NCBI GenBank assembly: GCA_003021085.1
Contig: PXRE01000005.1
Span: 3,433 to 67,432 of the forward strand
DNA length: 64,000 nucleotides
Origin: Halobacteriales archaeon QS_1_68_20
GTDB lineage: Archaea > Halobacteriota > Halobacteria > Halobacteriales > PXRE01
Direction: 5' to 3'
Program-made: the position numbers and the translations under genes
Notes under the pieces: generated by a model
Told to the model about the DNA's origin: nothing
Database searches by the model: none
The model's input: the letters and a program-made list of their open reading frames with translations, nothing else
In this document: positions 10,987 through 56,806 of the stretch, piece after piece
Layout of the letters: each line of letters begins with the position of its first letter
Numbering within the stretch: the stretch's first letter is position 1

Positions 10987-10992
10987 GGTTCG

Positions 10993-12210: not shown

Positions 12211-12455
12211 GCCCGCAGCTTCTGCTGGACGAGCTCCTTGAGATCCCCGACCGTCTCGAGTTCTTCCAGTTTCTCGTCGGGAATGGAGATGTCGTGCTCC
12301 ATCTCGATGATCTCGACCACCTCGATCACCGCGATGGAGTCAAGATCCAGGCCCTCGGATCCGAGCGGCGTGTCGTCCTCGTACTCGCCTGCCTCGATCC
12401 CGGTCGCCGTGGCGATGACCTCTTCCACGGACGTGTCAGCCTCCGTTTGTGACAT
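12207..12455 (-). CDS. acyl carrier protein
   Basis: Contains LDLDSIAVIEVV (the DSx phosphopantetheine-attachment motif); acidic, about 82 aa from the ATG at 12455 (track ORF extends to 12479). 4-nt overlap with the KS gene. Confidence 0.8.
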   Translation of the reverse strand: MSQTEADTSVEEVIATATGIEAGEYEDDTPLGSEGLDLDSIAVIEVVEIIEMEHDISIPDEKLEELETVGDLKELVQQKLRA

Positions 12456-12785
12456 GGCTAACAGGAGGGGACTCTCCATTGCTACTTAATATTTGCGTCT
12501 AACGCCCGGTGAACACAATTAGGTCGTGGAAAACGAACGTTCTTAGTTCCTAGATTTTAAGCAACGGTTCCGGTTATATACGTTCGATTACCTAACGGTA
12601 ACCACCCCCGACGGACCCCCGGCCGAGGACGACGGTCACCCGCCGGCCCCGGTCGTCGGACGAAACGGCGGGACGGCGACGGGAAATCATGCTGATCTAC
12701 CTGCTCGGGCGCCCGGACCGTCGAGGTGACCACCGACTGCCGGTACGCCGAGCTGTGCGCTCTCGCCGGCGAATATTCTAGATGA

Positions 12786-15299: not shown

Positions 15300-16328
15300 A
15301 TGTCTGGATACGATTCCTCATCCGCGGACGGGGGACGGACGGCCGAGGAGGCGTTCCTCTTGATCGCGCCGGTCCCGTCGCTGATGCTGTACGAGGACGG
15401 GCGGGTCAGCGCCTGGAACGAGGCCGCCGAGGACCTGTTCGGCTGGAGCGAACCGGAAGTGCTCGGGCGCATTCCGCCGTTCGTGCAGGCGTCCGAGCGC
15501 GGGCGCTGGCGCGAGCACATGGAGCGCGCCCTGGACGGCGAGCGCGTCCAGGGCGCGGAGTTCTCCCTGCGGACCATCCGGGGCGGCAAGATCCGGGCGA
15601 CTGTCTCGATGGCCGCCTTCTCGGGCGACGTTGGATCGGTGCTGGTGGTCATCCAGGACCGGACGCGGCTGGTCGAACTGACCCACGAGGTCCGGCTGTT
15701 CAACCGCGTCCTGCGGCACAACCTCCGCAACGACCTCAACCTCGTCACCGGCTACGCCGAGATGCTGGCGGGGGAACTGGACGACGACCGCCTGCGCTCG
15801 ATGGCCATCGAGATCAGGGAGAACGCCGACGAGGTGCTGGCCATCGGCGACACCGCCCGCGAACTGGACGCCGTCGTCGGCGGCATCCAGGACCTCAAGG
15901 TCGTCCAGCTAGACGAGATCGTCCGGACGCTGGTGGCTGACTACCGGTCCGTGGCGACCGTCGACTGTGATCTGTCGCCGGTGCGCGCCCGGGCCATCCC
16001 GGGCGTGGACATGGCCATCGACCACCTGCTGGAGAACGCCCTCCAGCACAACGACGCCGACGACCCCCACGTCGAGGTCACCGTCCGGACGACCGTCGAG
16101 GACGACGAGCGCTGGGCGGAGGTGGTCGTCGCGGACAACGGCCCCGGCATCCCCGAGGCCGAACGCGAGGTGCTGACCGAGGGCGCGGAGACGGCCCTCC
16201 ACCACGGGAGCGGCCTCGGCCTGTGGCTGGTGTATTGGATCGTCCAGAAGACGAACGGCGAACTGGCGTACGAACCGAACGACCCAAAGGGGAGCGTCGT
16301 CACGCTCCGACTGCTCGCGGACCGATGA
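15300..16328 (+). CDS. PAS domain sensor histidine kinase
   Basis: N-terminal PAS-like region, H-box VLRHNLRNDLN, HATPase_c motifs ENALQHN, DNGPGIP, GSGLGLWLV. Confidence 0.85.
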   Translation: MSGYDSSSADGGRTAEEAFLLIAPVPSLMLYEDGRVSAWNEAAEDLFGWSEPEVLGRIPPFVQASERGRWREHMERALDGERVQGAEFSLRTIRGGKIRATVSMAAFSGDVGSVLVVIQDRTRLVELTHEVRLFNRVLRHNLRNDLNLVTGYAEMLAGELDDDRLRSMAIEIRENADEVLAIGDTARELDAVVGGIQDLKVVQLDEIVRTLVADYRSVATVDCDLSPVRARAIPGVDMAIDHLLENALQHNDADDPHVEVTVRTTVEDDERWAEVVVADNGPGIPEAEREVLTEGAETALHHGSGLGLWLVYWIVQKTNGELAYEPNDPKGSVVTLRLLADR

Positions 16329-40388: not shown

Positions 40389-41952
40389 TTAAGTGTTCGT
40401 CCCGTCGAGCGTATCGTACACCACGTCGCCGTCCACGACCGTCGCCGCGACGTCGATGTCACGAATCTCGTGGTCGTCCTCCCAGGGCGACCGCTCCAGC
40501 ACCACCAGGTCCGCCCGTTTGCCTTCCTCGACGGTCCCGAGGCGGTCCTCGTCGAAGCCAGCGTACGCACCCCCGAGGGTGTACGCGCGCAGGGCCTCGG
40601 TCACCGTGAGACGCTGGCGCTCGTCGGGCGCGTGGACGGCGTGGTGGACGCCCGCCAGCGGCCCCAGCGGCATGGAGTCGCTACCGAACGCCAGCGGGAC
40701 GCCGGCGTCCAGCAGGTCGCGGTAGCGGTTCGAACGCCGCCGGCGAGTCTCGCCGAGGCGCTGGTCGTAGAGGCCGCCCTCGCCGGCCCACTGCAGGAAG
40801 TTCGGCTGGCAGGAGGCGACCATCCCCGCGTCGGCCATCCGCTCTGCGTGCTCGTCGTCGAACAGTTCGACGTGCTCGATCCGGTGGCGGGCCGCGCCGG
40901 GGTCGTCGGTGGCCGCGTAGCACTCGACCACGAGGTCGACGGCCTCGTCCCCGATGGCGTGGGTGACCATCTGGAGGCCGGCGTCGTCGACCCGCTCGAC
41001 CAGTTCGCTGAAGTCGTCGGGGTCGACGACCCACTGGCCGCGGCCGTCGTCGTCGCGGTCGGCCGGGTCGGCGCCGGCGTAGGGTTCGGTGACCTTCGCC
41101 GTCCGTCCGCCGAAACTGCCGTCGGTGAAGCTCTTGATCCCGCCGACGTCGACGAGGCCCCCGCCGTAGTTCGTGCGGAGGCCGGTCTCCAGCACCGCGT
41201 CGAGGTGGTCGCTCCAGTAGTCGATGCGGACCCGGAGGTCCAGCTCCCCGGCGCGGTCGAGTTCGCGGTAGACCCGCGGGGCGTACGAGTCCCGGACCTT
41301 CTCGTGGACGCAGGTGACCCCGAGTTCGAGCGCTCGGTCCCGGGCCGCGGTCACGAGGTCCCGAGTTTCGGCGACGTCGTCGCCGACGGCTTCTCGGACG
41401 ACGCCGACCGCGTCCTCGACGACGACGCCGGTGGGGTCGCCATCCTCGAACTCGACGTCGTCCTCCGGGAGGGCCTCGCGGAGTCGGTCGAGGCCGACCG
41501 AGTTCAGCGTCGCCGTGTGCATGTCCACGCGATAGGCGACGACGGGTCGCTCGTCGCTGACGCGGTCGAGGTCGCCCTTCCGGAGGTACCGGCCCTCTGG
41601 CCAGTCGCTCTCGTCCCAGCCGAACCCCTGGAGCCACTCGCGGTCGTCGGGGGCGTCCTCGCGGAGCGTCTCGACGGCGTCGTCGACCGAGTCGGCGGCC
41701 GAGAGGTCCGCGTGGACGACGTACTGGCCGGTCGACTCCATGTGCGTGTGGGCGTCCACGAAGCCCGGGAGGACGACGCGGCCGTCGAGGTCGATCACGT
41801 CCGTCTCGACGCCGGCGAGGAAGTCGACCTCGTAGGCTGACCCCACCCGGACGATCTCGCCGTCACGGACGGTCGCCCCACGGACTCCCCGGCGGCGGTG
41901 CGAGCGTGTGGACCTCGGCGTTCGTGAGGACGAGGTCCGCTTGCTGGGTCAT
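40389..41952 (-). pseudogene. amidohydrolase family (Amidohydro_3-like) metal-dependent hydrolase with an N-terminal frameshift near 41850-41880
   Basis: ATG at 41952 gives MTQQADLVLTNAEVHTLAPPPG..., then stops. The main frame (40389..41846) continues ...VRDGEIVRVGSAYEVDF...PGFVDAHTH. Confidence 0.65.
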
Positions 41953-43685: not shown

Positions 43686-44855
43686 CTACGCTTCCTGCGC
43701 GGACCCGACAGATCGGAGGTCGACGGGGTCGTCCTGCAGGTCGATCACGTGATCCGGCTTCGGTCCGGTCTTGAACAGGCCCAGCTCCGCGTCGGTGTTA
43801 GCGACCACCTCGTCGACCGATCGGAGCCACTCGCGGGTCTCAGGCGTTAGCTCTGCAAACGTGCCGACCCCGTAGTTGTCCACGTCCAGGTAATCGAGGA
43901 ACGTGATGGCGATCTTGTCGGGGTCGTTGAGTTCGATCGCCTCCCGGAACTGCTGCCAGGACCACTCGAAGACGCGCCGGTTGCGTTCGGTCACGCTCGC
44001 GAGCTCGGTCGGCGGCTCGTCGTGGCCGGCACGCTCGGCGATGGTCTCGAAGTCGATCTCCTCGGTGTCCATCGGCCCCGAGTTCTCTCCGGCGCGGATC
44101 GGGTACGTCCGGAAGACGACCCAGACGTCCCGGACCGCAGATGGCGGGAGCCCCGCCGACGAGAGGAACGACGACGCGGTGCAGTCCCGGGAGGTCGTGA
44201 ACGGGTAGTGGTTGCTCTGGTTCATCGAGAGCTGGGTCCCCTGGGTCCCCTCCACGATGACCGACTCGCCCCTGCGGCCGTACTCCAGGAGCCGGCTGGC
44301 GACCCGGCTGTCGACGTACGGCTGTAGTTCCGGACGGTCCTCGGCGAGGTCGGCGCTGCCTGCGCTCCGCCAGATCTTCTCGCTCCGGACCGCCCCACAG
44401 CCGTGAACCGTGGAGCCGATCTCCTCACCGAGACTCCGGTCGCGCTCGAGCTCGCGGTGGCCCTCGTCGATGATCGCCGCCTTCGGGTCGACGTAGATCC
44501 GGTCGCGAGTCCCCTCGCCGTGGAGGTCCACGAGGCGCTCGATCTCGTCCTGGATCTCCCCGAGTCCGAACGAGGATTCGGCGGCCATCAGCAGATCGAC
44601 CTCCGGGTCGACGATGCCGGGCGACGGGATGACCTGCTGGATGTGCGGCGACTCGTCGGCGTCGTAGACGGTGTGACCGGCGTTCGACGAACCGGGGCGA
44701 ACCGCGCCACCGTACTGGTTCCGTCTCGCGAGATGGCCCGCCACTGCACCCTTCCCCTCGCTCCCTGCCTGGCCGCCGACGACGACGTCTGCGAATCCCT
44801 GGGGGGGTTCCGCGATGTTCACGTTCGCTCGAGATTCTGTCCTATCAATTGACAT
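43686..44855 (-). CDS. divergent adenylosuccinate synthetase (PurA) family ligase
   Basis: PurA landmarks are present but altered: P-loop GGQAGSEGKG (canonical GxQWGDEGKG), SNAGHTV, IGSTVHGCGA, EGTQGTQLS, YPFTTSRD, VTERNRRVFEW (canonical TTGRxRRxGW). Confidence 0.75.
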   Translation of the reverse strand: MSIDRTESRANVNIAEPPQGFADVVVGGQAGSEGKGAVAGHLARRNQYGGAVRPGSSNAGHTVYDADESPHIQQVIPSPGIVDPEVDLLMAAESSFGLGEIQDEIERLVDLHGEGTRDRIYVDPKAAIIDEGHRELERDRSLGEEIGSTVHGCGAVRSEKIWRSAGSADLAEDRPELQPYVDSRVASRLLEYGRRGESVIVEGTQGTQLSMNQSNHYPFTTSRDCTASSFLSSAGLPPSAVRDVWVVFRTYPIRAGENSGPMDTEEIDFETIAERAGHDEPPTELASVTERNRRVFEWSWQQFREAIELNDPDKIAITFLDYLDVDNYGVGTFAELTPETREWLRSVDEVVANTDAELGLFKTGPKPDHVIDLQDDPVDLRSVGSAQEA

Positions 44856-45045: not shown

Positions 45046-46086
45046 TCACACGTACACGCCAGCGTACGCCCCCATGAGCGCCAGGAGGTAGACCGCGTTG
45101 ACGATGTCGATCCGGTACAGCGTCGAGACGGTGCTCGTGTCGAAGACGTACAGGACGCCCGACGCGACGATGCCGAGCACGAGGAACCCGGCCAGCGCCA
45201 GCGGGTCCGCAACGCCGAGCAGCACCCCGCCGGCCACGTACGACACCGGGAAGCTCACCATGAGGTACTTGGTCGCGCGCTCGCGGCCCACCTTGACGAC
45301 GAAGTTCTCGACGCCGGACTTGGCGTCGTGTTCGGCGTCCTTGAGGTCCTTGTAGGACATGTTCAGCGCCATGAACAGGAACACGACGGCGGCGAGCCGC
45401 GTCGACTCCGTGGTCGGGGCATCGACGACCGCCGCGCTCCCCAGCAGCACGCCCGCGACGCCCATCAGGCCCGCGGAGACCATGCTGGTGACCACGCCTC
45501 CTTTGAGCCTGATCGGCGGAACCGAGTAGAGGACGTTGATGACGATCATCCAGATGGCACCGGCGACGGCGTACAGGTTGATGGCTGCCGCGAACCCGCC
45601 CCCGGCGATCCAGAGGACGACCGCGGCCACGAACGCCTCCCGGTCGGTCAGCTCGCCCTGGGCGGTCGCCCGGTGGGGGCTGGCGTGTTCGTCGGTCTCC
45701 CTGTCGAAGACGTCGTTCATGAACCACGAACCACACCACGTCAGCGCCAGCGCCCCGGCACCGGCCACGATGGTCGTCGCCGACGGGACCGCGTTCCCGG
45801 TCCCAACCATCTCGAAGACGATGCTGACCGCGAACAGCGCCCAGAATGCGATCACTGCCGACATCATCTTGGCCGTGCGCCTGCCGAGGAGCTTCGCCTT
45901 CCGGGGCTGGGTCACCGCGTACGCTGCGTAGGAGACGCCCAGCACTCCGGTGATCGCACCTACGAGAACCGTCGACGAGATCGGAACGACCGCACTCACG
46001 GCCGGGACACCTCCCACGGCTGATCGACGAGCGCGTCCGAGTCCTCCGGTACCTTCGACATGTCTCCCGATAGCAGCCCTTTCCAT
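45046..46086 (-). CDS. UbiA family membrane prenyltransferase
   Basis: First Asp-rich motif NDVFDRETDEH followed by HRATAQGELT; second motif YKDLKDAEHDAKSG; 8-9 TM helices. Confidence 0.85.
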   Translation of the reverse strand: MERAAIGRHVEGTGGLGRARRSAVGGVPAVSAVVPISSTVLVGAITGVLGVSYAAYAVTQPRKAKLLGRRTAKMMSAVIAFWALFAVSIVFEMVGTGNAVPSATTIVAGAGALALTWCGSWFMNDVFDRETDEHASPHRATAQGELTDREAFVAAVVLWIAGGGFAAAINLYAVAGAIWMIVINVLYSVPPIRLKGGVVTSMVSAGLMGVAGVLLGSAAVVDAPTTESTRLAAVVFLFMALNMSYKDLKDAEHDAKSGVENFVVKVGRERATKYLMVSFPVSYVAGGVLLGVADPLALAGFLVLGIVASGVLYVFDTSTVSTLYRIDIVNAVYLLALMGAYAGVYV

Positions 46087-46157: not shown

Positions 46158-47132
46158 ATGGTGTACGTAGGAGTTGATCACTCGACGACTGGCGTGAAAG
46201 TAGGGATACTGGACGGCGACGAGGAGCAAACGGCGTTCACGCTCGACCGGGCCCGCCTCGGGGACGGGAGCGTCACCCTCCTCGACGCGCTCTCCGAGCG
46301 CGTGACCACTGACGCCATCGACCGGGCGGCGATCACCTACAGCTGGGGCAACGGCATCGCGTCCATCCAGGACATCGAGCGGACCGACAATCGGGGGATC
46401 AAGGATCACATCGGCGCGGGGTACGAACTCGGCGGGGGCACTGCCGCCTACGACGAGCTCGAAGCGTCGTCCGTGCCGGCCGTGGTGATCCCGGGGGTCC
46501 ACAGGGAACTCCCACCGCTGCACCCGTACTTCAGCCACTACTCGGCGCTGGCCGGCGGCGACAAGGTGGCCGCGATCCGGTACGCCCAGCACCGACTGGC
46601 CGACGAGACCGACGGCGAGGAGTTCATCTGGGCGTGCGCGAGCTCCTCCTGCATGGCCGGACTCGTCTCCGACGGTGCGCTCCGTGGCTTCTTCCACTGG
46701 ATGGGGCTGATGCATGGGTGGCCCGACCCGGAGGCGTTGCGGGAGATGGACGAGGACCGGGTCGAGGACGTCCTGATGCGGTGTGGCGTTCTCCACCGCT
46801 CGGGCCTGGAGTTCGACGAGATCAGGGAGACGCCCGACGAGCAAGCGATGGAGATGTGCTACTGGGCGACGGTCCACAACATCTACTCCCTGGTGCCGTT
46901 CGCCCACGAGACCGGCGGCGGGCCGCCGGAGGCGATCGCCCTCACCGGACGGTTGACCCGGGTCGACGAGCCGGACCTGTCCGGCCGGGTCGCCGAGACC
47001 TGCTCGGACGTGGCTCCCACCTACCGGTGTGGCGAGTACAGCTCGGCGTACGGAGCCGCCCACGTTGCCCGCGACGTCGACCGCGGCGAACCGGACGTCC
47101 TCGGCATCCCCGTCGCGGAGGGTCTGGCATGA
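46158..47132 (+). CDS. ASKHA-fold (sugar kinase/Hsp70/actin-like) protein, DUF1464/UPF0285-like
   Basis: N-terminal phosphate-1 motif VYVGVDHSTTGVKVGI; 324 aa. Family name recalled, not searched. Confidence 0.55.
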   Translation: MVYVGVDHSTTGVKVGILDGDEEQTAFTLDRARLGDGSVTLLDALSERVTTDAIDRAAITYSWGNGIASIQDIERTDNRGIKDHIGAGYELGGGTAAYDELEASSVPAVVIPGVHRELPPLHPYFSHYSALAGGDKVAAIRYAQHRLADETDGEEFIWACASSSCMAGLVSDGALRGFFHWMGLMHGWPDPEALREMDEDRVEDVLMRCGVLHRSGLEFDEIRETPDEQAMEMCYWATVHNIYSLVPFAHETGGGPPEAIALTGRLTRVDEPDLSGRVAETCSDVAPTYRCGEYSSAYGAAHVARDVDRGEPDVLGIPVAEGLA

Positions 47133-47674
47133 GCCGGATCTTCGTCGCCGGGCCGATCGACTACCGACCGCTGAACGAGGTCGTCGACTACCGGCTGCGG
47201 CTCGCCGACTTGGTGCGGGAGGAGGGGCACTCGCTCGTCGACCAGTACTCCGGCGCCCTCGAACGGGTGGCCGACATCGACTTCGGCGGCGGACCCGTCG
47301 ACCTCGACGAGATCCGGGACGTCATCGCCTCGCTCCCGGACGAGCCGTACGTGGAGGCGCTCAGACACGCCATCGACGAGCACTCGCTGCTCGCAGTGGT
47401 CCAGTCGCCGGGCCTCGTTCCCGAGGAGATGCCGCCAGAGATCGTCGAGGCGCTCGTCCACCGTGACCTCGAGCTGGTCGAGGAGGCCGACGCCGTCCTG
47501 GCGTACCTCCCGCGGCCGTCCTGTGGGACGACGGCCGAGATCGTCCACGCCCACGACCTCGGGCTCCCCATCGTCGTCGTCAGCGAGGAACCGCCCACGT
47601 TCATCCGGTACTACGCCGACGAGGTGCTGACCGACGAGGCCGACGCGATCGCCGCGCTGGAGGACTACGTCTAG
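47129..47674 (+). CDS. nucleoside 2-deoxyribosyltransferase-like (Rossmann-like N-glycosidase/transferase fold) protein
   Basis: ATGA overlap with the upstream gene. MSRIFVAGPI start and LPRPSCGTTAEIVHAHDLGLPIVVV match the family pattern xxGTxxExGxA with the catalytic Glu. Confidence 0.5.
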   Translation: MSRIFVAGPIDYRPLNEVVDYRLRLADLVREEGHSLVDQYSGALERVADIDFGGGPVDLDEIRDVIASLPDEPYVEALRHAIDEHSLLAVVQSPGLVPEEMPPEIVEALVHRDLELVEEADAVLAYLPRPSCGTTAEIVHAHDLGLPIVVVSEEPPTFIRYYADEVLTDEADAIAALEDYV

Positions 47675-47709: not shown

Positions 47710-48585
47710 CTAGGGGGTCCTGACGGTGAACGAGAGGCCGCCCCGCTGGTCGCCCGGGAAGTCCCCGTGGTCGTACGCCGCCGCGATCGCGTCGCCGAGC
47801 TCCCGACACCGCTGCTCGGTCTCCGGCGACAGTCCGGCACAGAGGAGGTGTGACCCGACCAGCCCCGGGTCCGTGGAGAGTCCGTGGTTCGCGGGGGCCT
47901 CCAGCGCGAGCTCGCCACACCAGGCCGAACTCGCGTCGTCGAGCTGCTCGCGGACCTCCTCGCGGACGTGCTCCCACCGTCGCTCGATGGCCTCGGCGGA
48001 CTCGAAGCCGTACCACAGCAACGCCACGTCGCCGCGGGCGGCAACGTCGGCGAACAGTTCGATGGGGGTCAGGCCGGCTGGATCCGTCGCCGCGAACGTC
48101 TCGAACGGGTCGACGTGGACGACGTCGGTCCCGTCACCGTCGGCAGCGATGCCAGCAGCCACCCCGGAGAGGCCGTCGGCGGGGACGGCGTTCACCGCCG
48201 ACGAGCAGTCCCGTCTCGACGCTTCCTCGCGGATGGAGTCGAGACACCCGGGGTCGACGTCGAAGAAGTAGTAGTCGGCGGCGTCACCCAGGACGCCCAT
48301 CGCGAGCGCGGGCGACCCCAGGTACGTCTCCGGGTCAGTCCGACTGTCGTTCGCCTCGCTGAACAGCGTCGTGTACGTCGCCGAGTCCAGCGCGGGGACG
48401 TCGCGGCTGCGTGCGAGGTACCGGCCGGCGCCGAACTGGCGCTCGTCGGCTTCGTCCATCGCGTATCTCGCCGCCCCGGCGTGGGTCTCCCAGAACCGGT
48501 CGGGCCGCTCTTCGTCGAGGATCGCACACGTCAGCAGGTGCTTCCAGACGTCTCCGACGTTGCCGAAGTGGTGGTTTCCGATCAT
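47710..48585 (-). CDS. RlmJ-like (DUF519) SAM-dependent methyltransferase-fold protein with altered motif IV
   Basis: ATG at 48585 inside track ORF 47710..49158. HHFGNVGDVWKH, ETHAGAARY, YLGSPAL and LLWYGF parallel E. coli RlmJ. The DPPY position reads DPFE. Confidence 0.6.
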   Translation of the reverse strand: MIGNHHFGNVGDVWKHLLTCAILDEERPDRFWETHAGAARYAMDEADERQFGAGRYLARSRDVPALDSATYTTLFSEANDSRTDPETYLGSPALAMGVLGDAADYYFFDVDPGCLDSIREEASRRDCSSAVNAVPADGLSGVAAGIAADGDGTDVVHVDPFETFAATDPAGLTPIELFADVAARGDVALLWYGFESAEAIERRWEHVREEVREQLDDASSAWCGELALEAPANHGLSTDPGLVGSHLLCAGLSPETEQRCRELGDAIAAAYDHGDFPGDQRGGLSFTVRTP

Positions 48586-50687
48586 GGTTGCTCTCGCAAT
48601 CGAACGACGATGGCGACTGCAACGGCCAGCACCAGAAGGTTGGCGACGAGCCAGGGCGGCACCGGCAGCGACTCGTCCGCCGGCCCGGGACGGTCCGGGG
48701 ACGTGTCCACGCCGGCCGCGTCCGCGTACGCCGACAGCGCCAGCAGCGCTGCCGCCTGGGTCCACGCCTCGTCGACGTACGTTGGCGGAGCGCCCTGGTA
48801 CATGACGGGCGAGGCCGCCCACGAGCCGTCGGGGCGCTGGGTGTCCAGCAGGTACTGGACGCCGGCGCGGACCGCGGGGTGGTCCGGCGAGTACCCCGCC
48901 GCGAGCAACGCCTGCAGCGCCCACGCGGTCTGCTCTGGCGTGGACGGCGCCGACAGGTACTGGGCGTCGTCCCACCCCGGGAAAGTGCCGCCTTCGAGGA
49001 TCCCCTCGCCCCACCCGCCGTCGGGGTTCTGGCGCTCGACGAGCGCGGCGGCGGCCTCCTGGATCTCGGGGCGGTTCGGGTCGACGCCGACGCCGACCAG
49101 TCCCTGGATCACCCTGCTCGTCCCGTAGGTGTACCGCACGCCCCACTTCGCCGGCCACATCTCGGTCCGGTCACGTGCGCCGAGCAGGTAGTCGACGGCC
49201 GCCCTGACGGAGGCGTTGTTCTCGACGGTGTACCCGTGGGCCCCCAGCGACATGAGGACGTGCCCGTTCGTCCCTGGGACCGGCTCGTCGCCGAACAGCG
49301 TGCGGTAGAGGCCTCGGTCCAGCTCCTCACGGAGGTCCGATTGCTCGCTCTCGTTCAGCGGATCGAAGTCGGTCGACCACGTCGACCAGGTTCCGTCCTC
49401 GTTCTGGACGTCGAAGAGGAACGTCACCGAGTCCGCCACGACCATCTCGTCGTACGGCGCGAGGGTCCTGGTCACGACCGCCGTCTCTCCCCAGTTGCTC
49501 TGCAGTTCGGGTTTGTACGACCAGCCGTGGCCGTAGTGGCTGCGGAACGGCAGCGGCGGTCGATCCAGCGTCAGGTTCCTGCGCGTCCGGTAGACGTTCG
49601 TGGTCGTCCTGGCGTCGACCAGCCACTGGGCGGCGTCCTTGACGGTCTCGTTGTCGGGGGACAGTCCCGAGCTCGTCAGCGCCTGCACCGTCCAGGCGGT
49701 GTCCCAGACGGGGGTCCGGAAAGCGACGAACCGGCCGCTCGGGGCCTGCCTGTTCTCCTCCAGCCACCGGGTGGCGATCCGGATCGGGTCGTCGTCGACC
49801 TCGTAGCCCGCCTCGTGGAGCGCCAGTACGGCGTACATCGTGTCGAACGCGGTCGCCCAGGCGCCGCTGGTCTGGCGGCGCTTCAGGAGGACCTCGGTGA
49901 GGGCTTCCTTGGCGTCCTCTTCGTCCGTGGAGACGTTCGAGCGCACCTCCAGCGACAGGACGTTCAGACTGATCATCGTGTCCAGCGCGTTGTGGTTGAC
50001 GGCGTGGTCGGTCGGGGAGAACTCACCCTCGAAGGCAGGCGTCAACAGCAACAGCCCCGGCAGCTCCTTGAGGGTCTCGTTCGGGAACAGCTCCCCGGCC
50101 GAGCGGCGCTCGTCCATCAGCGTGTAGAACAGCCGCGTCCGGTAGAGGAAGATCTCGTCCCTCGGGGTCTCGGCCTCCACGTCGACGAGGCTCGCGTTCG
50201 CCCGGTCGAGTTCGCTGCGGATCGCCCGCCGCTCGGCCTGGTACTCGCCGTCGAGTTCGGACAGCAACAGCAGTCCGGCGTAGTTGGCGATGGTGTCGTT
50301 CCACCCGCCGTCCGGTTGCCGTCGCTGCAGCACGTACTCCACCGCGCGCCGCTTGCTCTCGGAGTCGATGCCCAGTCGCTCGAGTACGAGTGCGTACTCG
50401 ATCGTGTACCTGAGGTCCCAGGGACGCAGCCCGCCCATGGAGATGTTCGACGCCCAGTGGTCGCCGGTCCTGTTGGGGCTGTCGAGGATGTACGACCGGG
50501 AGTCATCGACCGCCTGGGCCACCGCGGTGTCCGTCGGTGAAGCCGCGTCTGCCGGCGAACGAGCCGACGCCTGCGCGATCGGACCGAACTGCGCAGTCAG
50601 AAACAGAACGCAGACGGCGAGTACCTTGACGGTCCCCGTGACTGCGGCCAGCCGGTTCCGTCGCCCGGCCGCTCGCGTACCCTTCAT
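48582..50687 (-). CDS. squalene-hopene cyclase family protein A, membrane-anchored, DxDD motif degenerate (SNWGETA)
   Basis: QW repeats (RRQPDGGWND, VQNEDGTWS, RQNPDGGWGE, TQRPDGSW). C-terminal STPEQTAWALQAL...RAGVQYLLDTQRPDGSW closely parallels bacterial SHC. N-terminal signal/anchor and C-terminal TM. ATGA overlaps on both sides. Confidence 0.8.
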   Translation of the reverse strand: MKGTRAAGRRNRLAAVTGTVKVLAVCVLFLTAQFGPIAQASARSPADAASPTDTAVAQAVDDSRSYILDSPNRTGDHWASNISMGGLRPWDLRYTIEYALVLERLGIDSESKRRAVEYVLQRRQPDGGWNDTIANYAGLLLLSELDGEYQAERRAIRSELDRANASLVDVEAETPRDEIFLYRTRLFYTLMDERRSAGELFPNETLKELPGLLLLTPAFEGEFSPTDHAVNHNALDTMISLNVLSLEVRSNVSTDEEDAKEALTEVLLKRRQTSGAWATAFDTMYAVLALHEAGYEVDDDPIRIATRWLEENRQAPSGRFVAFRTPVWDTAWTVQALTSSGLSPDNETVKDAAQWLVDARTTTNVYRTRRNLTLDRPPLPFRSHYGHGWSYKPELQSNWGETAVVTRTLAPYDEMVVADSVTFLFDVQNEDGTWSTWSTDFDPLNESEQSDLREELDRGLYRTLFGDEPVPGTNGHVLMSLGAHGYTVENNASVRAAVDYLLGARDRTEMWPAKWGVRYTYGTSRVIQGLVGVGVDPNRPEIQEAAAALVERQNPDGGWGEGILEGGTFPGWDDAQYLSAPSTPEQTAWALQALLAAGYSPDHPAVRAGVQYLLDTQRPDGSWAASPVMYQGAPPTYVDEAWTQAAALLALSAYADAAGVDTSPDRPGPADESLPVPPWLVANLLVLAVAVAIVVRLREQP

Positions 50688-50935
50688 ATCCGGGTGACGA
50701 CCAGGTTGTAGACGAACGCGATCACACCTCCCGTGATGGCTCCGTCTACGAACCCGGCGACTGCGCCTGCTACTCCACCCACCAGCGACGGCGCGAAGCC
50801 GGGGTAGTGCGAGGAGAACAGGTCGACGAACGCCTCACCGTGACCGAACATCGCCGCCCAGCCCATGAACAGCATGTAGATCGCCCACATGATGCCGAAC
50901 CCGACGGCGAATCCCTTGATGCTGAGTTTCGACAT
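50684..50935 (-). CDS. small 2-TM membrane protein (83 aa), paralog of 51043..51300
   Basis: Shared pattern YPGFxPxxxGxVAGAxxGFxDGAIxGxxxAxVYN with the neighbour. ATGA overlap with the cyclase-like gene. Confidence 0.6.
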   Translation of the reverse strand: MSKLSIKGFAVGFGIMWAIYMLFMGWAAMFGHGEAFVDLFSSHYPGFAPSLVGGVAGAVAGFVDGAITGGVIAFVYNLVVTRI

Positions 50936-51042
50936 CGGTTACACTCCCGGGCGTCCTGCCCTGTTCGTCGGATCGTTCGAACACCTGCACTGTCGACCGT
51001 TCTGCGTGTTCCGTGCTTCGTGCATCGTATCGTTCCCTCGAT

Positions 51043-51300
51043 CTAGTCGTCCAGGTCCGCTATGCCGTTGTACACAACTGCGAGGATCGCCCCTTTGATC
51101 GCTCCGTCGAGGAATCCCCAGGCTGCACCTGCGACGCTGCCGATCATGGTCGGTCCGAACCCTGGATAGACCGGAGCGATGGCCTCGACGACGAAACTGG
51201 TCCCGGCGTCGGCCGTCGCTGCCAGTCCAGCATACAGCATGAACACCGACCACATGGCACCGAACGCCGCCGCGAAGGACGGTACGTTCAGCCGAATCAT
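51043..51300 (-). CDS. small 2-TM membrane protein (85 aa), paralog of 50684..50935
   Basis: ATG at 51300 (MIRLNVPSFAAAFGAMW) chosen by alignment to the paralog and by a TTTAATAAAT box about 30 nt upstream. The track ORF extends to 51345. Confidence 0.55.
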   Translation of the reverse strand: MIRLNVPSFAAAFGAMWSVFMLYAGLAATADAGTSFVVEAIAPVYPGFGPTMIGSVAGAAWGFLDGAIKGAILAVVYNGIADLDD

Positions 51301-51545
51301 CGATGAGCTAACCAATCTTCCGTGATTTATTAAAACCTTCGACATTTATACGGGCCTCCGCTGAAAAACCCTTCCCCGCGGCCGAGGCGGGGCCTGGGCC
51401 CGCGCTCGTGGTGTCAGAACCGGGATCCCCGGTTCCGTCAGACGGCGTTCTGGCCGTTGTATCCACGACGAACTGCGTTTATTGTACTATCTATTTATTA
51501 GATTAGTAAGGCTTATTGACTTCTGATCGACAACTAGTGAGGGAA

Positions 51546-53576
51546 ATGCTGATCGGCGGAAAGAGAGTGAGCGCAATTGCGTTTGCATTGTTGCTGGTCA
51601 CGTCGATGGTTGGTACGGCGATCACGCTCGGCGTCACCGCGGCGGCGGACTCGGACGCGGCCGGACCATCCGAGGCCGAGGTCCAGCAAGCCGTCGACGA
51701 CTCTCGCCAGCACCTCCTGAACTCGATGGAGGACGACCACTGGGCATCTGCCGTCCGATCGGGCCGAAACGGTATCTGGGACGTCAGGTGGTCGATCTAC
51801 TACGCGGTGATGCTCGAACGCCTGGACGCGAAGCCGAAGAGCCAGCAGGCGGCGATCGACTGGGTGCTCTCGAAACGGAACTCGAACGGTGGGTGGAACG
51901 ACACCGTCGCCAACTACGGTGCGTTGCTACTGTTCGAGGAGATGAACACCGACCAGTACGACGACGTCGTCGCGGACGTCAGGGCAGAGAACCAGCGCAA
52001 CGACATCTCGCTGGTCTCGGGGAACGCCAGTCAGGGCCAGTCGTTCGTGGAGGACAACCTCCGCCTGAAACTCCTGTACGGCCTGATGAGCGACAGATAC
52101 ACCAACGAACAGCTGTTCCAGGACGGCAATCCCGGCGGGTTCGGCGAACTCGGTGGGATGACCCCCGCGTTCGAGAACGGCTTCCACCCGAACAAGTCCT
52201 TCGTCATGCCGGACACGGTCGACCTGACGCTGAGCATGACCACGATCGGTCTGGCCATCGAGCGCGACAACGGGTGGGAGCGAGGCAACAGGAGCGAGGA
52301 GCTGAACCGGACCGCGGAGCTGCTGCTCGCCCGCCGGCTACCCAGCGGCGTCTGGGCGACGTCGATCGACAACATCTTCGCCGTGCTGGCGCTCAACGAG
52401 GCGGGCTACGACGCCGACGACCCCGAGATCTCCCGGGCGCTGGATATGATGGCGGAAACCCGGCAAGCGTCCAACGGCAGGATCATCGGGTTCAAGCTGT
52501 CGGTCTGGGACACCGCCTGGTCCATGCACGCCCTCGTGGAGAGCGGCGTGTCGCCGAAGCACGAGAAGCTCCAGTCCGCGGCGCAGTGGCTCTACGACGC
52601 TCGCGCGTCTCCCCCGTCCCAGAAGCGCGCGGACGTCCCCCTCAAGCGGCCCCCGATCCCGTTCCGCCCGAACTTCGGGAAGGGCTGGGGGTACAAGCCG
52701 CACATGTACAGCGACTGGGACGACACGGCGGTCGCCGTCGTCGCGCTCGAACCCTACGACGACCGCATCGTCGAGGAGCACATCCAGTACCTCTTCGACG
52801 TGCAGAACTCCGACGGTAGCTGGGCCGCGTTCGTGACGGACTTCGAGCCGCTCAACGAGTCCGAGCGCGAGGATGTCATCGAACGAGGCGGCGAGGACCT
52901 GTACGTGCAGCTGTTCACGACCCACCAGTCGCCGGACGTGACCGGCCACGTCCTCAAGGCCCTCGGGTCACACGGGTACACCGTCGAGAACAACGCCTCC
53001 GTCAGGGCGGCCGTCGACTTCCTGATGAACGCCCGCGACGACACCGGCATGTGGCGGGCCGTCTGGGGCAAGGGCTACGTCTACGGGACCAGCCGCGTCC
53101 TCATGGGCATGAAAGCCGTCGGCGTCGACATGAACCAGGCGGCGATCCAGGAAGCTGCGGGGGCGCTCGCTGCTCGCCAGAACCCCGACGGCGGCTGGGG
53201 CTACCGCAACGGTCCCTCGGAGCCGACCTACACCGCCTGGGTCGTCGAGGGGCTGCTCGCGGCGGGGTACTCGCCGGACCACCCCGCGGTCCGCGCCGGC
53301 GTCCAGTACCTGCTGGACACCCAGCGCCCCGACGGCTCCTGGAAAACCACGAAGATGATGCACAACCTGGAGCGGCTGGAGTACAGCCTCTCCGTGTTCA
53401 CGCAAGCCAGCGTCCTGTCGGCGCTGTCAGCGTACGCCGACGCGCGTGGCGTCCCCATCGACCCCGACCACGAATCCAGCCCGCTGGACGACCTCGCGTT
53501 TCCCCTCGCCGTGATCGGCGCCCAGGTCGCGTTCGTCGCGGTCGGGGTGCTGGTCGCCCGTCGGCGTTCGCCCTGA
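51546..53576 (+). CDS. squalene-hopene cyclase family protein B, membrane-anchored, intact DxDDTA motif
   Basis: SDWDDTAVAVVAL at nt 52713..52730 matches the class II terpene cyclase proton-donor motif. QW repeats (KRNSNGGWND, VQNSDGSWA, RQNPDGGWG, TQRPDGSW). N-terminal TM and C-terminal TM plus RRRSP. ATG at 51546 preferred over the TTG at 51516. Confidence 0.8.
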   Translation: MLIGGKRVSAIAFALLLVTSMVGTAITLGVTAAADSDAAGPSEAEVQQAVDDSRQHLLNSMEDDHWASAVRSGRNGIWDVRWSIYYAVMLERLDAKPKSQQAAIDWVLSKRNSNGGWNDTVANYGALLLFEEMNTDQYDDVVADVRAENQRNDISLVSGNASQGQSFVEDNLRLKLLYGLMSDRYTNEQLFQDGNPGGFGELGGMTPAFENGFHPNKSFVMPDTVDLTLSMTTIGLAIERDNGWERGNRSEELNRTAELLLARRLPSGVWATSIDNIFAVLALNEAGYDADDPEISRALDMMAETRQASNGRIIGFKLSVWDTAWSMHALVESGVSPKHEKLQSAAQWLYDARASPPSQKRADVPLKRPPIPFRPNFGKGWGYKPHMYSDWDDTAVAVVALEPYDDRIVEEHIQYLFDVQNSDGSWAAFVTDFEPLNESEREDVIERGGEDLYVQLFTTHQSPDVTGHVLKALGSHGYTVENNASVRAAVDFLMNARDDTGMWRAVWGKGYVYGTSRVLMGMKAVGVDMNQAAIQEAAGALAARQNPDGGWGYRNGPSEPTYTAWVVEGLLAAGYSPDHPAVRAGVQYLLDTQRPDGSWKTTKMMHNLERLEYSLSVFTQASVLSALSAYADARGVPIDPDHESSPLDDLAFPLAVIGAQVAFVAVGVLVARRRSP

Positions 53577-54003: not shown

Positions 54004-54762
54004 TTACTGGTGAACCCGGGTCTTGTGGTGGAACGCCAGCGTCGCGAGGATGGTGGTCGCGCCGAGGTACGCGACGGCCCAGCCGACGTCGGCGGCGGCG
54101 ATCTGCTCGGTGTACGTCGCGTCGAAGGCGATCTGGAGCGGGTAGTACCCAGGGAGGAACGTCATCCAGGCGTCGGGGTTGCCGCGGGTGATCATCGGGT
54201 TCTGGAAGATGAGAATGTCGAGCATCGGTGCGAACAGCATCGCGTACATGCCACCGAGGGTGTTCAGGACCGACCCGACCAGGACGCCGATCATGCCGTA
54301 GGTGAGACCGGCCACGAGCATCGCGACGACGAACCAACCCACGAGCGACGGCGTCAGGAAGAACATCATGACGACCAGCGAGGTCACGATGACCGCCAGC
54401 GAGATGACGCCGAGCAGGACGAGCCGCGAGGTGATGACCTCCCACGATCGGTAGCCGACCAGCACGAGGCGTCCGTCGTTCTCCTCGCCGCTTTGCATCA
54501 TGAACATCCCGGCGATCCCGGCGACCAGCGCACACACCATCGGCGTCATCAGCACGGTGTAGATCTCCGGCATGGGCTTGGAGATCGAGATGACGAGTCC
54601 GTCGACTTTCACCCACAGCGGAATCTCGTCGCCCGGAGCGACGAAGTTGATGAGCGCGATGAAGTAGATGGGAAGGTAGAGTACGAGCGACATGAGGACG
54701 TGGTTGCGGAGGCGTTCCTTGACGCCGACGACGAAGGCGGTGGTGACCCGGTGGTTGCTCAT
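54004..54762 (-). CDS. ABC-2 type transporter permease
   Basis: 252 aa, 6 TM; 4-nt overlap with the upstream permease gene. Confidence 0.75.
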   Translation of the reverse strand: MSNHRVTTAFVVGVKERLRNHVLMSLVLYLPIYFIALINFVAPGDEIPLWVKVDGLVISISKPMPEIYTVLMTPMVCALVAGIAGMFMMQSGEENDGRLVLVGYRSWEVITSRLVLLGVISLAVIVTSLVVMMFFLTPSLVGWFVVAMLVAGLTYGMIGVLVGSVLNTLGGMYAMLFAPMLDILIFQNPMITRGNPDAWMTFLPGYYPLQIAFDATYTEQIAAADVGWAVAYLGATTILATLAFHHKTRVHQ

Positions 54763-55496
54763 TGCAGGACACCTCCGCTACCCTCGCTCATCGCCCGGGA
54801 GAAGACCACGGTAGCGGCCACGAGCAGGACGAGGACGTACAGGACCGCCATCAGCAGGTGGTCGGACTCGACGGTGCCGTCGAACGCGGCAGCTTCGAGG
54901 ACGTGGTGGGAGTGGTACAGCGGGAAGAACTGCGGGAGGATCGATCCCCAGTCGACCAGCCCGCTGGCGAAGATGGTGTCGGAGTCGGCGACGAACACGA
55001 GCGCCAGCGACCCCTCGAGTTCACCCGGGAGGATCGAGCCGATGAGTACGCCGATGAGGCCGTACGTGAACCCGGCCAGCACGAGGCCCCCGAAGGTCAA
55101 CAGCGTAGACTCCGGCGGGTTGAACTGACTGAACACGACGAACGAGACCGTCGCGATGAACGCGCTGACGCCGATGACCGTCGCCAGCCGCGTCGCGAGC
55201 AGGTCCAGCTTCGGGAACCCGGCGATGACGAGTCGCCGGTCGGCGTCGTACGCACCGATGACCTGGAACAGGCCGAACAGGCCGGTCAGGAACGCGGTTG
55301 CGAACATCGCTCCGTTCACCTGGCCGAGTTGCACCGGCGACCGGTCGTCCAGCAGCGAGGCCGGCACCGCTTCCATGGCGATCCCGTACCCCTGGATCAC
55401 CAGCGGCGGGATGACCACGAGCAGCACGACGTTCATCGGGTTCCTGTAGAACGACCGGACGAACACGCGGATTCCCAACGTCCGGTTACTCGTCAT
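54759..55496 (-). CDS. ABC-2 type transporter permease
   Basis: 245 aa, 6 TM; overlaps the ATPase gene by 11 nt. Confidence 0.75.
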   Translation of the reverse strand: MTSNRTLGIRVFVRSFYRNPMNVVLLVVIPPLVIQGYGIAMEAVPASLLDDRSPVQLGQVNGAMFATAFLTGLFGLFQVIGAYDADRRLVIAGFPKLDLLATRLATVIGVSAFIATVSFVVFSQFNPPESTLLTFGGLVLAGFTYGLIGVLIGSILPGELEGSLALVFVADSDTIFASGLVDWGSILPQFFPLYHSHHVLEAAAFDGTVESDHLLMAVLYVLVLLVAATVVFSRAMSEGSGGVLQ

Positions 55497-56163
55497 CAGT
55501 CCCCTCCTCGTGCAGGACTCCCTCCCGGAGCTTGTAGATGCGGTCGAACCGGTCCTGCTCGTTGACGAAGTGCGAGATGATGACGATCCCGGTGCCGCTG
55601 TCGACCAGTTCCTCGGTCAGCTCCCAGAAGGCGAGGTACGTCTCCCAGTCGAACCCGGTGTACGGCTCGTCCAGCAGCAGGACATCGGGGTCGTGCATGA
55701 GCGCGATCCCCAGGTTGACCTTCTGGCGATTCCCACCGCTGAGGTTCTCGACGCGGTAGTCGACGTACTCCTCGAAGTCGAGGCGCTCGGCCATCCGCGA
55801 GACGGCGTCGTCGACCTCCGACTCGGACATCCCGTAGCCCCTGCCGAACAGGTCGAACGTCTCCCGAACCGTCAGTCGGTCGTACAGCAGCGTCTCCTGG
55901 GGGCACCACCCGATCCGCCCGTTACGGTCGACGTTCCCGGCGTCGTGGTTGAGGGTTCCGACGAGGATCTTCATCAGGGTCGACTTCCCGCTCCCGTTCT
56001 CGCCGACGACGCCGACGATCTCGCCGGGATACAGGTCGAAGTCGGTACCGGTCAGCACCTCGACGGTCTGGCCGTAGTGCGGTATCGTCGAACTGTAACT
56101 TTTTTCGATGCCACGCGCTCGAATCACCGGGTTGGTTCCTTCGCTGTTCGTTTTATTCGGCAT
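55486..56163 (-). CDS. ABC transporter ATP-binding protein
   Basis: Walker A GENGSGKST, signature LSGGNRQK, Walker B LLLDEP. ATG at 56163; alternative at 56190. Confidence 0.85.
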   Translation of the reverse strand: MPNKTNSEGTNPVIRARGIEKSYSSTIPHYGQTVEVLTGTDFDLYPGEIVGVVGENGSGKSTLMKILVGTLNHDAGNVDRNGRIGWCPQETLLYDRLTVRETFDLFGRGYGMSESEVDDAVSRMAERLDFEEYVDYRVENLSGGNRQKVNLGIALMHDPDVLLLDEPYTGFDWETYLAFWELTEELVDSGTGIVIISHFVNEQDRFDRIYKLREGVLHEEGTDDE

Positions 56164-56218
56164 TGACCGAATATTTCGAACAAAGCACATTAGGCGTTTC
56201 GGGACGTACTAACGGTTA

Positions 56219-56806
56219 ATGAGCAACGGTGCGGAGACGAACGACACCGGCGCGGTCGACGAGGACAGTTCCGGTGCTGCAGACGACCGTCAACCGGAGG
56301 TCGAAGCAGCCCGCCAGAAAGTAATCGGTGCGATGGAGCGGTCCGCGGAGGTGTACGGCCTCAACCGGAGTTACGGGCGGCTGTACGGGATCCTCTACTT
56401 CCAGGACGACCCCGTGTCGCTGGACGAGTTGACCGACCGCAGCGGCTACGCGAAGTCGACGGTGTCGACGGCGATGAAGAAACTCGAACGGCTCCACCTG
56501 GTCCACCGCAGATCCGTGCCTGGCGAGGGCAAGAAGGCGTTCTTCGAGGCCGAACGGGAGTTCTGGCAGGTCATCCAGGAGTTGCTCCGCCACGAGGTGA
56601 AACGCGAGATCGACATCATGACCCGCGCGCTGGACGAGGCCGAACAGCGACTGGAGGCGGCCGAGGACGAGCGGGCCGAGCAGGACCTGGAGAAGGTCCG
56701 GCACCTCGAACGGATGTTCGGCCGGGGCGAACGCCTGGTGAACGTGCTGACCGGGTCGTCGGTCGAGCGGTTGACTTCGTTGCTGGAGCGGTTGCGGCGG
56801 GAGTAG
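56219..56806 (+). CDS. winged-helix transcriptional regulator (GbsR/MarR-like), divergent from the ABC-2 operon
   Basis: YGLNRSYGRLYGILYFQDDPVSLDELTDRSGYAKSTVSTAMKKLERLHLV is the wHTH core; C-terminal coiled-coil-like region. Confidence 0.7.
   Translation: MSNGAETNDTGAVDEDSSGAADDRQPEVEAARQKVIGAMERSAEVYGLNRSYGRLYGILYFQDDPVSLDELTDRSGYAKSTVSTAMKKLERLHLVHRRSVPGEGKKAFFEAEREFWQVIQELLRHEVKREIDIMTRALDEAEQRLEAAEDERAEQDLEKVRHLERMFGRGERLVNVLTGSSVERLTSLLERLRRE

Follow-up and report, generated by a model that had tools for sequence, protein, structure and literature searches.

Two adjacent, divergently transcribed genes with one shared intergenic region lie in a 64,000-nucleotide stretch of contig PXRE01000005.1 (assembly GCA_003021085.1; the whole stretch is referred to below as the window) of the metagenome-assembled genome (MAG) Halobacteriales archaeon QS_1_68_20, a high-GC haloarchaeon (GC of the window 0.63–0.73). 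The products of these genes, here called A and B, are homologous to squalene–hopene cyclases (SHCs). An earlier note on this DNA, made from the letters alone, had described them as SHC-like paralogs predicted to face outward, one with an intact catalytic motif and one in which the proton donor is destroyed. B is a 100% match to BRC81_02090, a 'hypothetical protein' of the MAG. From an alternative TTG start at 51516 B would comprise 686 aa, and from the NCBI ATG start at 51546 it comprises 676 aa; the ATG fits as the start because an AT-rich, TATA-like box lies ∼40–50 nt upstream of B.

Homology, fold and distribution of the family

A and B share 45% identity across their whole length, and both match the Pfam family SQHop_cyclase_C at about 1e-50; weak TED/pectate-lyase matches were also present in the Pfam scan. 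In a phmmer search against PDB, residues 329–610 of B aligned with residues 310–592 of the SHC of Alicyclobacillus acidocaldarius (AacSHC) at E 6e-36, with 'ysDwDDTAv' placed over 'ypDvDDTAv'. Strict QW cores (Qx2-5GxW) number five in A, three in B and eight distinct ones in AacSHC, in keeping with the several QW repeats that had been noticed in both proteins.

AlphaFold2 models of the two proteins share the same helix pattern and are of similar quality (pLDDT 85.3 for B and 85.6 for A, pTM 0.84 each), low confidence being limited to the first 45–50 residues, some loops and the linker that leads to the final helix. Foldseek searches of PDB with these models placed AacSHC at the top for both (E 4e-24 for B and 2e-23 for A, template-modelling [TM] score 0.74–0.75), with 22% identity over ∼660–690 aligned columns. 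Drimenyl diphosphate synthase, oxidosqualene cyclase, Rv3377c, ent-copalyl diphosphate (ent-CPP) synthase and MstE followed, and the top 42 matches of A and B were all class II cyclases or cyclase-fold proteins, with TM scores up to 0.78. As modelled, A and B are two-domain class II cyclase folds, that is, beta-gamma double alpha/alpha-barrels.

The family to which they belong is, as far as the databases searched indicate, very rare and specific to haloarchaea. Word-indexed searches returned about 24 haloarchaeal relatives at 36–61% identity, the next matches (1e-33 to 1e-35) being bacterial SHCs. An exhaustive profile search of 1.84 billion protein representatives gave 15 full-length family representatives at 665 bits or more, below which the best full-length match fell to 357 bits, and a scan with 10 sequences across one genome per GTDB species found Halocatena marina only. 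In neighbour-joining trees the haloarchaeal family was monophyletic and separated by a long stem from bacterial SHCs; neighbour-joining is a crude method, and the branching order within the haloarchaeal family should be treated with caution. Cultured carriers of the exported type are Halocatena marina, Halorussus caseinilyticus and Halorubellus litoreus, and those of a signal-less type are Haloarcula pellucida and Haloarcula sp. JP-L23; NCBI labels the cultured members 'prenyltransferase/squalene oxidase repeat-containing protein'. The MAG itself encodes a third SHC-like paralog on a different contig (PSP77736.1, BRC81_09600; P0282), of 657 aa and with the motif YSDWDDTG.

The catalytic motif and its surroundings

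Residues were mapped in an L-INS-i alignment that combined the haloarchaeal family with 31 bacterial SHCs and AacSHC (in a sequence matching 1GSZ chain A exactly) and that was repeated with more sequences. Columns of the N-terminal domain differ between the two alignments, and at position 169 only the statement 'not Trp' is safe. The DWDDTA of B falls in register with D374–D377 both in this alignment and in the phmmer match to PDB, which bears out its proposed equivalence to the DxDDTA of SHCs, and the motif positions given in the earlier note were exact for both proteins (Table 1). B further retains D313, W312, D447, H451, W485, W489 and Y495 in addition to D374, D376 and D377. Across 22 B-type members T378, W485 and Y495 never vary and DWDD hardly does; D313 is retained in 21, H451 in 20, W489 in 18, D447 in 14 and W312 in 13. 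The Y420 position is aromatic (F/Y/W) in 21 of the 22, B itself having Phe. The central Asp of DxDD together with its H-bond partners, the equivalents of H451 and Y495, is present in B and in 21/22 B-type sequences, the exception being P0022, which reads DWDT.

Protein A lacks the proton-donor motif, as had been proposed. In its NWGETA the central general acid D376 is replaced by Gly, D374 by Asn and D377 by Glu, and both A and its closest relative P0024 carry Gly at the D376 position although H451 and Y495 are retained.

Export and membrane topology

The terminal architecture described for A and B was recovered in both: a basic N-terminus followed by a strongly hydrophobic segment, with AQASA in A, and a C-terminal hydrophobic helix followed by a basic tail. 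The n-region of A reads GRRNRL, a non-canonical twin-arginine (RR) sequence, and that of B reads GGKR, which is Sec-like. Export signals across the family were scored by motif and hydropathy count, with 111 bacterial SHCs as controls. An RR motif was found in 12/23 haloarchaeal members as against 2/111 bacterial SHCs, a hydrophobic N-terminus in 17/23 as against 2/111, and a C-terminal transmembrane segment, as a helix with an Arg-rich tail, in 20/23 as against 0/111. Canonical twin-arginine signals in relatives include SRRGLLAGLA, SRRSLLAAFA, TRRQVLAATVG, LRRDFLGGI, PRRAFLGGV and RRRLLSVLA. One member beyond the 12 with RR motifs, P0141, has a signal for the twin-arginine translocation (Tat) pathway with a terminal lipobox (RRQLLASAAGGVGATAGC), and P0137, P0020 and P0022, whose Tat signals are not accompanied by a C-terminal anchor, look like soluble Tat substrates. 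When nine N-termini were searched against Pfam, neither a Tat-signal family nor any other relevant one was found.

These architectures are familiar in haloarchaea. Most of the haloarchaeal secretome is reported to travel via Tat (as stated in PMC6525301), and the Tat substrates of Haloferax comprise soluble, C-terminally anchored and lipoprotein classes, which are named in a paper title cited in PMC2945643 (Gimenez et al. 2007). Given that relatives carry Tat signals and bacterial SHCs essentially none, an outward orientation of the domains is well supported at the level of the family by its sequence signals. For A and B themselves it is supported through homology and the positive-inside rule, and the outward-facing prediction of the earlier note has gained strength from the Tat motifs, the lipobox and the C-terminal helices of the relatives.

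The next-closest relatives outside Halobacteria are four metagenomic proteins at ∼300–357 bits, P0145, P0147, P0148 and P0151. DxDD is retained in P0147 and P0151, P0145 has only the DD pair, and P0148 reads DWDDVS. Each of the four has a signal peptide or a lipobox, joined in P0145 and P0147 by a C-terminal helix. Since these second-tier relatives carry signals too, export may predate the haloarchaeal family, and their sequences hint that exported SHC-like proteins form a broader group that has yet to be described.

An old lineage without the general acid

The relative closest to A, P0024 (749 aa), is 61% identical to it and has the motif SNWGDTA. Its contig shows the order A-type gene, X, NDT-like, UPF0285, UbiA, which is the synteny of the window, and no B-type gene occurs on it within ∼8.7 kb upstream or 10 kb downstream. 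In the neighbour-joining trees A and P0024 form a clade of their own. Because P0024 shares the degenerate motif, the full length and the synteny, the loss of D374 and D376 is, by this comparison, old and stably inherited. The A-type proteins also have features of their own, with Glu or Asp at the D377 position and, in the columns of Y609, Y612 and E45, Asp, Trp and Glu respectively. The Glu that A has at the D377 position, or the Asp of the Y609 column, might supply an alternative acid.

A retains its full length, export signal, anchor, H451, Y495 and W312/D313; its GC content at third codon positions (GC3) is 0.91, as in genuine genes, and it is translationally coupled to S2 and X, its neighbours in the operon. 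That all of this is kept despite the loss of the acid argues for a retained, non-canonical function of A rather than decay, as far as sequence can tell. A fits the description of a pseudoenzyme paralog, its catalytic residue lost and its fold kept under apparent purifying selection, although synonymous sites are saturated. A 420-aa variant of A, P0025, was found on an ENA contig of 2.7 kb from a different assembly; it is 99% identical to A up to about residue 363 and unrelated thereafter. A frameshift in the window DNA does not account for this unrelated tail; P0025 may come from a strain whose A gene is disrupted, or may be an artefact of assembly.

Sequence exchange between A and B

B groups with P0002 and P0003, and A groups with P0024, near P0006–P0009 in one of two neighbour-joining trees. 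As placed by these trees, A and B are old paralogs of different subclades and no recent duplication. They nevertheless share a 111-nt inverted repeat that is 92% complementary, one arm in each gene (Table 1). The tract lies in codon register, and over 30 codons its identity is 97% at the nucleotide level and 100% at third positions, compared with 60% and 54% for the two genes overall. A second tract reaches 86% (about 49180–49270 in A and 52920–53010 in B), and orthologs in other genomes are without the block that A and B share. The pattern is that of local gene conversion between inverted genes, by which A and B exchange sequence. The C-terminal block that is identical in A and B, LLAAGYSPDHPAVRAGVQYLLDTQRPDGSW, had been taken for simple conservation; with 100% third-position identity it is instead a gene-conversion tract, and the two proteins are identical there because of conversion between the inverted genes.

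Genes of the locus and their conservation

The genes around A and B follow the order UbiA (-), UPF0285 (+), NDT-like (+), an S1-S2-A-X operon (-), B (+), an ABC-2 exporter (-) and MarR (+), with coordinates given in Table 1. S1 is the first gene of the operon, which runs from 51345 down to 47710; the S2 stop overlaps the A start, and the X start overlaps the A stop (ATGA), coupling X translationally to A. X has no match in Pfam or NCBIfam, and it is kept directly after the A-type ortholog in contig L001 (49% identity). S1 and S2 are small, glycine-rich, paralogous membrane proteins encoded upstream of A in its operon. They were not found beside SHC-like genes at other loci, and no PHROG match backs the label 'holin' for them.

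Table 1. Features of A, B and the surrounding genes; positions are those of the window.
Feature	Coordinates	Strand	Remarks
A: exported, C-terminally anchored SHC-like paralog without general acid (topology predicted)	48582..50687	-	701 aa, A-type lineage
B: exported, C-terminally anchored SHC-like class II terpene-cyclase homolog, DWDDTA intact (topology predicted)	51546..53576	+	
DWDDTA of B, equivalent to AacSHC D374-V-D376-D377-T-A	52713..52730	+	residues 400-405 of 686-aa B
NWGETA of A (D374 to N, D376 to G, D377 to E)	49479..49496	-	residues 398-403 of A
B N-terminal Sec-type signal or anchor (MLIGGKRVSAIAFALLLVTSMVGTAITLGVTAAAD)	51546..51650	+	low pLDDT there
B C-terminal transmembrane helix and ARRRSP tail	53499..53576	+	helix 662-680
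A N-terminal signal: basic GRRNRL, hydrophobic core, AQASA	50562..50687	-	
A C-terminal transmembrane helix and RLREQP tail	48582..48659	-	helix 679-697
Gene-conversion tract, A arm	48819..48929	.	pairs with 53232-53342 in B
Gene-conversion tract, B arm	53232..53342	.	pairs with 48819-48929 in A
S2: 83-aa small membrane protein	50684..50935	-	NCBIfam holin_4, 72.5 bits (cut-off 70)
S1: S2 paralog, ∼85-100 aa	51043..51345	-	holin_4, 66.6 bits (cut-off 70)
X: 291-aa distant RlmJ-like methyltransferase homolog	47710..48585	-	PDB phmmer 1.8e-5
Nucleoside-2-deoxyribosyltransferase-like (NDT-like) protein; conserved cluster member	47129..47674	+	
UPF0285 / methanogenesis-marker-12-like (ASKHA/BadF-type) protein; conserved cluster member	46158..47132	+	
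UbiA-family prenyltransferase; conserved cluster member	45046..46086	-	no curated subfamily
ABC-2-type exporter	54004..56190	-	permeases 54004-54762 and 54759-55496; DrrA-like ATPase 55486-56190
MarR-type regulator	56219..56806	+	62% identical ortholog in Halorussus cluster

Much of this neighbourhood is conserved. Searches with tblastn found orthologs beside SHC-like genes elsewhere for UbiA (36–72% identity), UPF0285 (45–68%), NDT-like (44–65%), the three ABC genes (34–68%) and MarR (62%), the carriers being Halocatena marina, Halorussus caseinilyticus and metagenomic contigs. Elsewhere, orthologs of the ABC-2 exporter genes sit immediately upstream of the SHC-like gene. Halocatena marina, Halorussus caseinilyticus and contig L011 share the order UPF0285, NDT-like, ABC ATPase, permease, permease, SHC-like, an MMPL/Patched/sterol-sensing RND protein and a polyprenyl synthase, with UbiA nearby. 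The cluster of Halorubellus litoreus holds ABC, MMPL, UbiA and P450 genes, the SHC-like gene and a 3beta-hydroxysteroid dehydrogenase-like (3beta-HSD-like) gene; further contigs have an added P450 or the ABC genes only. In Haloarcula sp. JP-L23 the signal-less gene stands with a GT2 gene, a TylF-like methyltransferase gene, UPF0285 and an NDT-like gene. The prenyl synthase of Halocatena has Tyr at position -5 relative to its first DDxxD, which, by the rules of chain-length determination, suggests a short-chain (C15–C20) product.

Other open reading frames (ORFs) of the window were also considered. The 870-aa ORF at 16375–18987 (+), a candidate for an MMPL or prenyl synthase gene, encodes a STAND-NTPase/TPR protein instead, and the 342-aa ORF at 15300–16328 (+), which adjoins it and was a candidate for the same roles, encodes a PAS histidine kinase; neither has any bearing on A and B. 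The amidohydrolase gene at 40389–41846 is not orthologous to the amidohydrolase of other clusters. Beside UbiA lies a divergent adenylosuccinate-synthetase-like gene (43686–44855, -) that scores below the cut-offs of both the archaeal PurA model (251 vs 368 bits) and the PurZ model (231 vs 300). Further away, an operon-like row at 7976–12479 (-) forms a bacterial-type fatty-acid/polyketide cassette in an archaeon, with genes for an acyl carrier protein, a beta-ketoacyl synthase, a 4'-phosphopantetheinyl transferase, an MCAT-like acyltransferase, an SDR/ketoreductase and an enoyl-CoA hydratase.

A proposed function and its alternatives

On the sequences, the predicted folds and the gene context, we lean slightly towards the reading that A and B represent a rare haloarchaeal offshoot of the SHC superfamily, exported and tethered to the outer face of the membrane, in which B is an active cyclase and A is without the acid. 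The two-domain alpha/alpha-barrel enzyme would be exported via Tat or Sec, and its C-terminal helix would tether it to the outer face of the cytoplasmic membrane. B, with complete protonation machinery, would most likely be the active cyclase. A prenyl lipid substrate could come from the co-clustered UbiA, together with the dedicated short-chain polyprenyl diphosphate synthase of other genomes, and the co-clustered ABC-2 exporter, or the MMPL/RND protein elsewhere, could bring it to the outer leaflet; alternatively the substrate may be a membrane-soluble polyene such as squalene that reaches the outer leaflet unaided. A would most likely be a non-catalytic lipid-binding or partner protein, or would carry out different chemistry. 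The full pathway, in which rare haloarchaea cyclise an isoprenoid lipid outside the cytoplasm, with a prenyl diphosphate synthase and UbiA building it, ABC-2 or MMPL proteins exporting it, B-type proteins cyclising it and A-type proteins acting as lipid-binding partners, is a more speculative extension that we put forward tentatively and with some doubt.

Several observations weigh against such an exported cyclase. The curated SHC model TIGR01507 has a cut-off of 431.1 bits, and A (175.6) and B (157.2) fall far below it. The haloarchaeal family has other residues at W169, F365, F601, Y609 and Y612, all five of them invariant across the 31 bacterial SHCs, and likewise at the nearly invariant I261, P263, F434 and F605; the segment around F166 is deleted. 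The signals of A and B are Sec-like and without a clear Tat motif. A nested subclade from cultured Haloarcula species (P0140, P0142, P0143) has neither signal nor anchor, and the third paralog of the MAG has no signal peptide and no C-terminal helix; given such signal-less members, cyclase-type chemistry is not tied to the outside. Neighbours of the P450 and 3beta-HSD-like kinds are cytoplasmic enzymes. UPF0285 is not a constant companion of the SHC-like genes, as it stands alone in Halosimplex aquaticum and Halorientalis brevis, and neither an MMPL nor a polyprenyl synthase gene was found among the window ORFs examined (the whole window was screened for ORFs by codon bias, and selected ones were run against Pfam). 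Literature searches returned no report of a haloarchaeal or exported SHC-like cyclase. We know of no extracytoplasmic class II terpene cyclase; every class II terpene cyclase characterised so far acts, to our knowledge, within the cytoplasm or at the cytoplasmic side of the membrane.

Taken with the conserved motif, the alignment indicates a cavity whose proton-donating end is conserved and whose distal, ring-templating end is not. Activity of B should not be taken for granted given that SHC cavity residues are replaced or deleted, and with the distal cavity remodelled the substrate is probably not squalene converted to hopene. B looks, from its residues, like a working class II cyclase and not like a hopene synthase. 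Plain 'SHC' would be too strong a name in view of the curated cut-off and the distal active-site residues, and is better taken to mean an SHC-derived class II cyclase. It is very unlikely, in our estimation, that B is a true squalene–hopene or tetrahymanol-type cyclase that makes hopanoid-like triterpenoids from the cell's own squalene. SHC is the best match in sequence and fold, squalene synthase occurs in haloarchaea (PMC7306690), and an HpnN-like MMPL protein with a sterol-sensing domain adjoins orthologs; the score against TIGR01507, the changes at W169, F365, F601, Y609, Y612, I261 and F605, the F166 deletion and the long stem all speak against it, and linkage to UbiA and a short-chain prenyl synthase favours a prenylated acceptor over squalene. 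The same remodelled cavity and low scores, with the noncommittal NCBI name, the weak TED/pectate-lyase matches and an A-type that keeps the scaffold without the acid, might suggest that neither protein is an enzyme and that both are exported alpha/alpha-toroid modules for binding a lipid, polyprenol or glycan, comparable to further secreted proteins whose annotation mentions prenyltransferase/squalene-oxidase repeats. We consider this improbable, since retention of DWDDT with H451, D447, Y495, W489 and D313 at 36–60% overall identity is difficult to account for in a non-catalytic protein, the two-domain cyclase fold is complete, and the neighbours (UbiA, polyprenyl synthase, P450) are isoprenoid-biosynthetic.

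The place and partnership of the two proteins invite other explanations. If the terminal helices were mere anchors, the barrels could be cytoplasmic as in bacterial SHCs, as might be expected from the lack of a canonical Tat motif in A and B, the signal-less family members and the cytoplasmic-side location of every class II cyclase known to us; the net positive charge beside the helices at both termini (N-in, C-in, so loop out) and the canonical Tat signals and lipobox of close relatives with the same domain leave this topology highly improbable. Hardly any more credence can be given to A being a functionless, decaying pseudogene: the loss of the acid and the shortened P0025 would fit, but the 701-aa ORF is intact with the GC3 of real genes, its start and stop overlap its operon neighbours, the 61% identical P0024 shares full length, degenerate motif and synteny, the model of A is confident, and the P0025 tail did not arise from the window DNA by frameshift. 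AacSHC is described as a homodimer, and A and B could, in line with the suggestion of the earlier note, be an obligate heterodimer in which dead A regulates, positions or feeds substrate to active B on the cell surface. Their adjacent, divergent genes with a shared intergenic region, their common export and anchor architecture, and conversion tracts that show long co-residence are consistent with this. It is nonetheless unlikely: A and B come from different old subclades, P0024 has no B-type gene over the interval given above, most carriers show one exported copy at the locus examined, the one other assembly with two paralogs has them on separate contigs, and the same MAG holds a third, signal-less paralog with an intact motif. 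An exported, outer-face-tethered B with an acid-less relative in A is thus the reading we retain, and because cultured carriers exist the idea is directly testable.

Significance and comparison with known systems

Were the full pathway outlined above true, B would rank as the first class II terpene cyclase outside the cytoplasm and as part of the first polycyclic isoprenoid pathway in Halobacteria. An active B-type protein would make terpenoid cyclisation possible on the outer cell surface, would be a new source of cyclic isoprenoid lipids and thereby of possible biomarkers in hypersaline sediments, and would offer a natural pair of active and dead paralogs for studying reuse of the SHC scaffold. 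Within Archaea, squalene synthase is confined to Halobacteria and Poseidoniia (Santana-Molina et al. 2020, PMC7306690), and McShea et al. 2025 (PMC12414744) mention a few archaeal sequences, in an outgroup clade only; neither paper reports a triterpenoid-type cyclase in Halobacteria, although these archaea do make squalene.

Among known proteins AacSHC (1SQC/2SQC/3SQC; TIGR01507) is the closest in kind. It has the same beta-gamma alpha/alpha-barrels (TM score 0.74–0.75), DxDDTA in register in B, QW repeats, and D313, D447, H451, W485, W489 and Y495 in common. It differs in its low identity (∼22%), in the residues W169, I261, P263, F365, F601, F605, Y609 and Y612 that are replaced here and the F166 segment that is deleted, and in that A and B add an N-terminal export signal and a C-terminal transmembrane anchor, occur in an archaeal host and include an acid-less member. 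SHCs are expected to lack a signal peptide and to be monotopic on the cytoplasmic face, a trait from which A and B, with their predicted signal and anchor, depart.

The class II cyclases of prenyl diphosphates (SsDMS, 7XQZ; ent-CPP synthase, 5BP8; Rv3377c, 6VPT) likewise share the beta-gamma fold and the DxDD acid, and linkage to a short-chain prenyl diphosphate synthase would fit a C15–C20 substrate; these enzymes are cytoplasmic and soluble, and their Foldseek matches (E 1e-17 or worse) are weaker than that to SHC. Functional enzymes of this class, halimadienyl diphosphate synthases acting as class II diterpene cyclases, are described for Asgard archaea in a preprint whose available portions make no mention of Halobacteria (bioRxiv 10.1101/2025.02.07.637177). 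Meroterpenoid cyclases of the MstE type (6SBB) resemble the proposal in their pathway logic, in that a class II cyclase acts on the prenyl chain that UbiA has attached to an acceptor, and differ in being single-domain, cytoplasmic and cyanobacterial, with only a distant match (E ∼1e-8).

We know of no terpene cyclase among the Tat substrates of Haloferax. The three export and anchoring architectures of the present family are nonetheless the same as those of the Haloferax volcanii Tat substrates, as named in the title by Gimenez et al. that PMC2945643 cites, the signals of A and B differing in being Sec-like and without a clear RR. Set beside these systems, what is known is the scaffold itself; what appears to be new, judged from the genes and their products, is the predicted placing of a class II cyclase scaffold outside the cytoplasm on a membrane tether, together with its conserved isoprenoid and export gene cluster and an acid-less sublineage.

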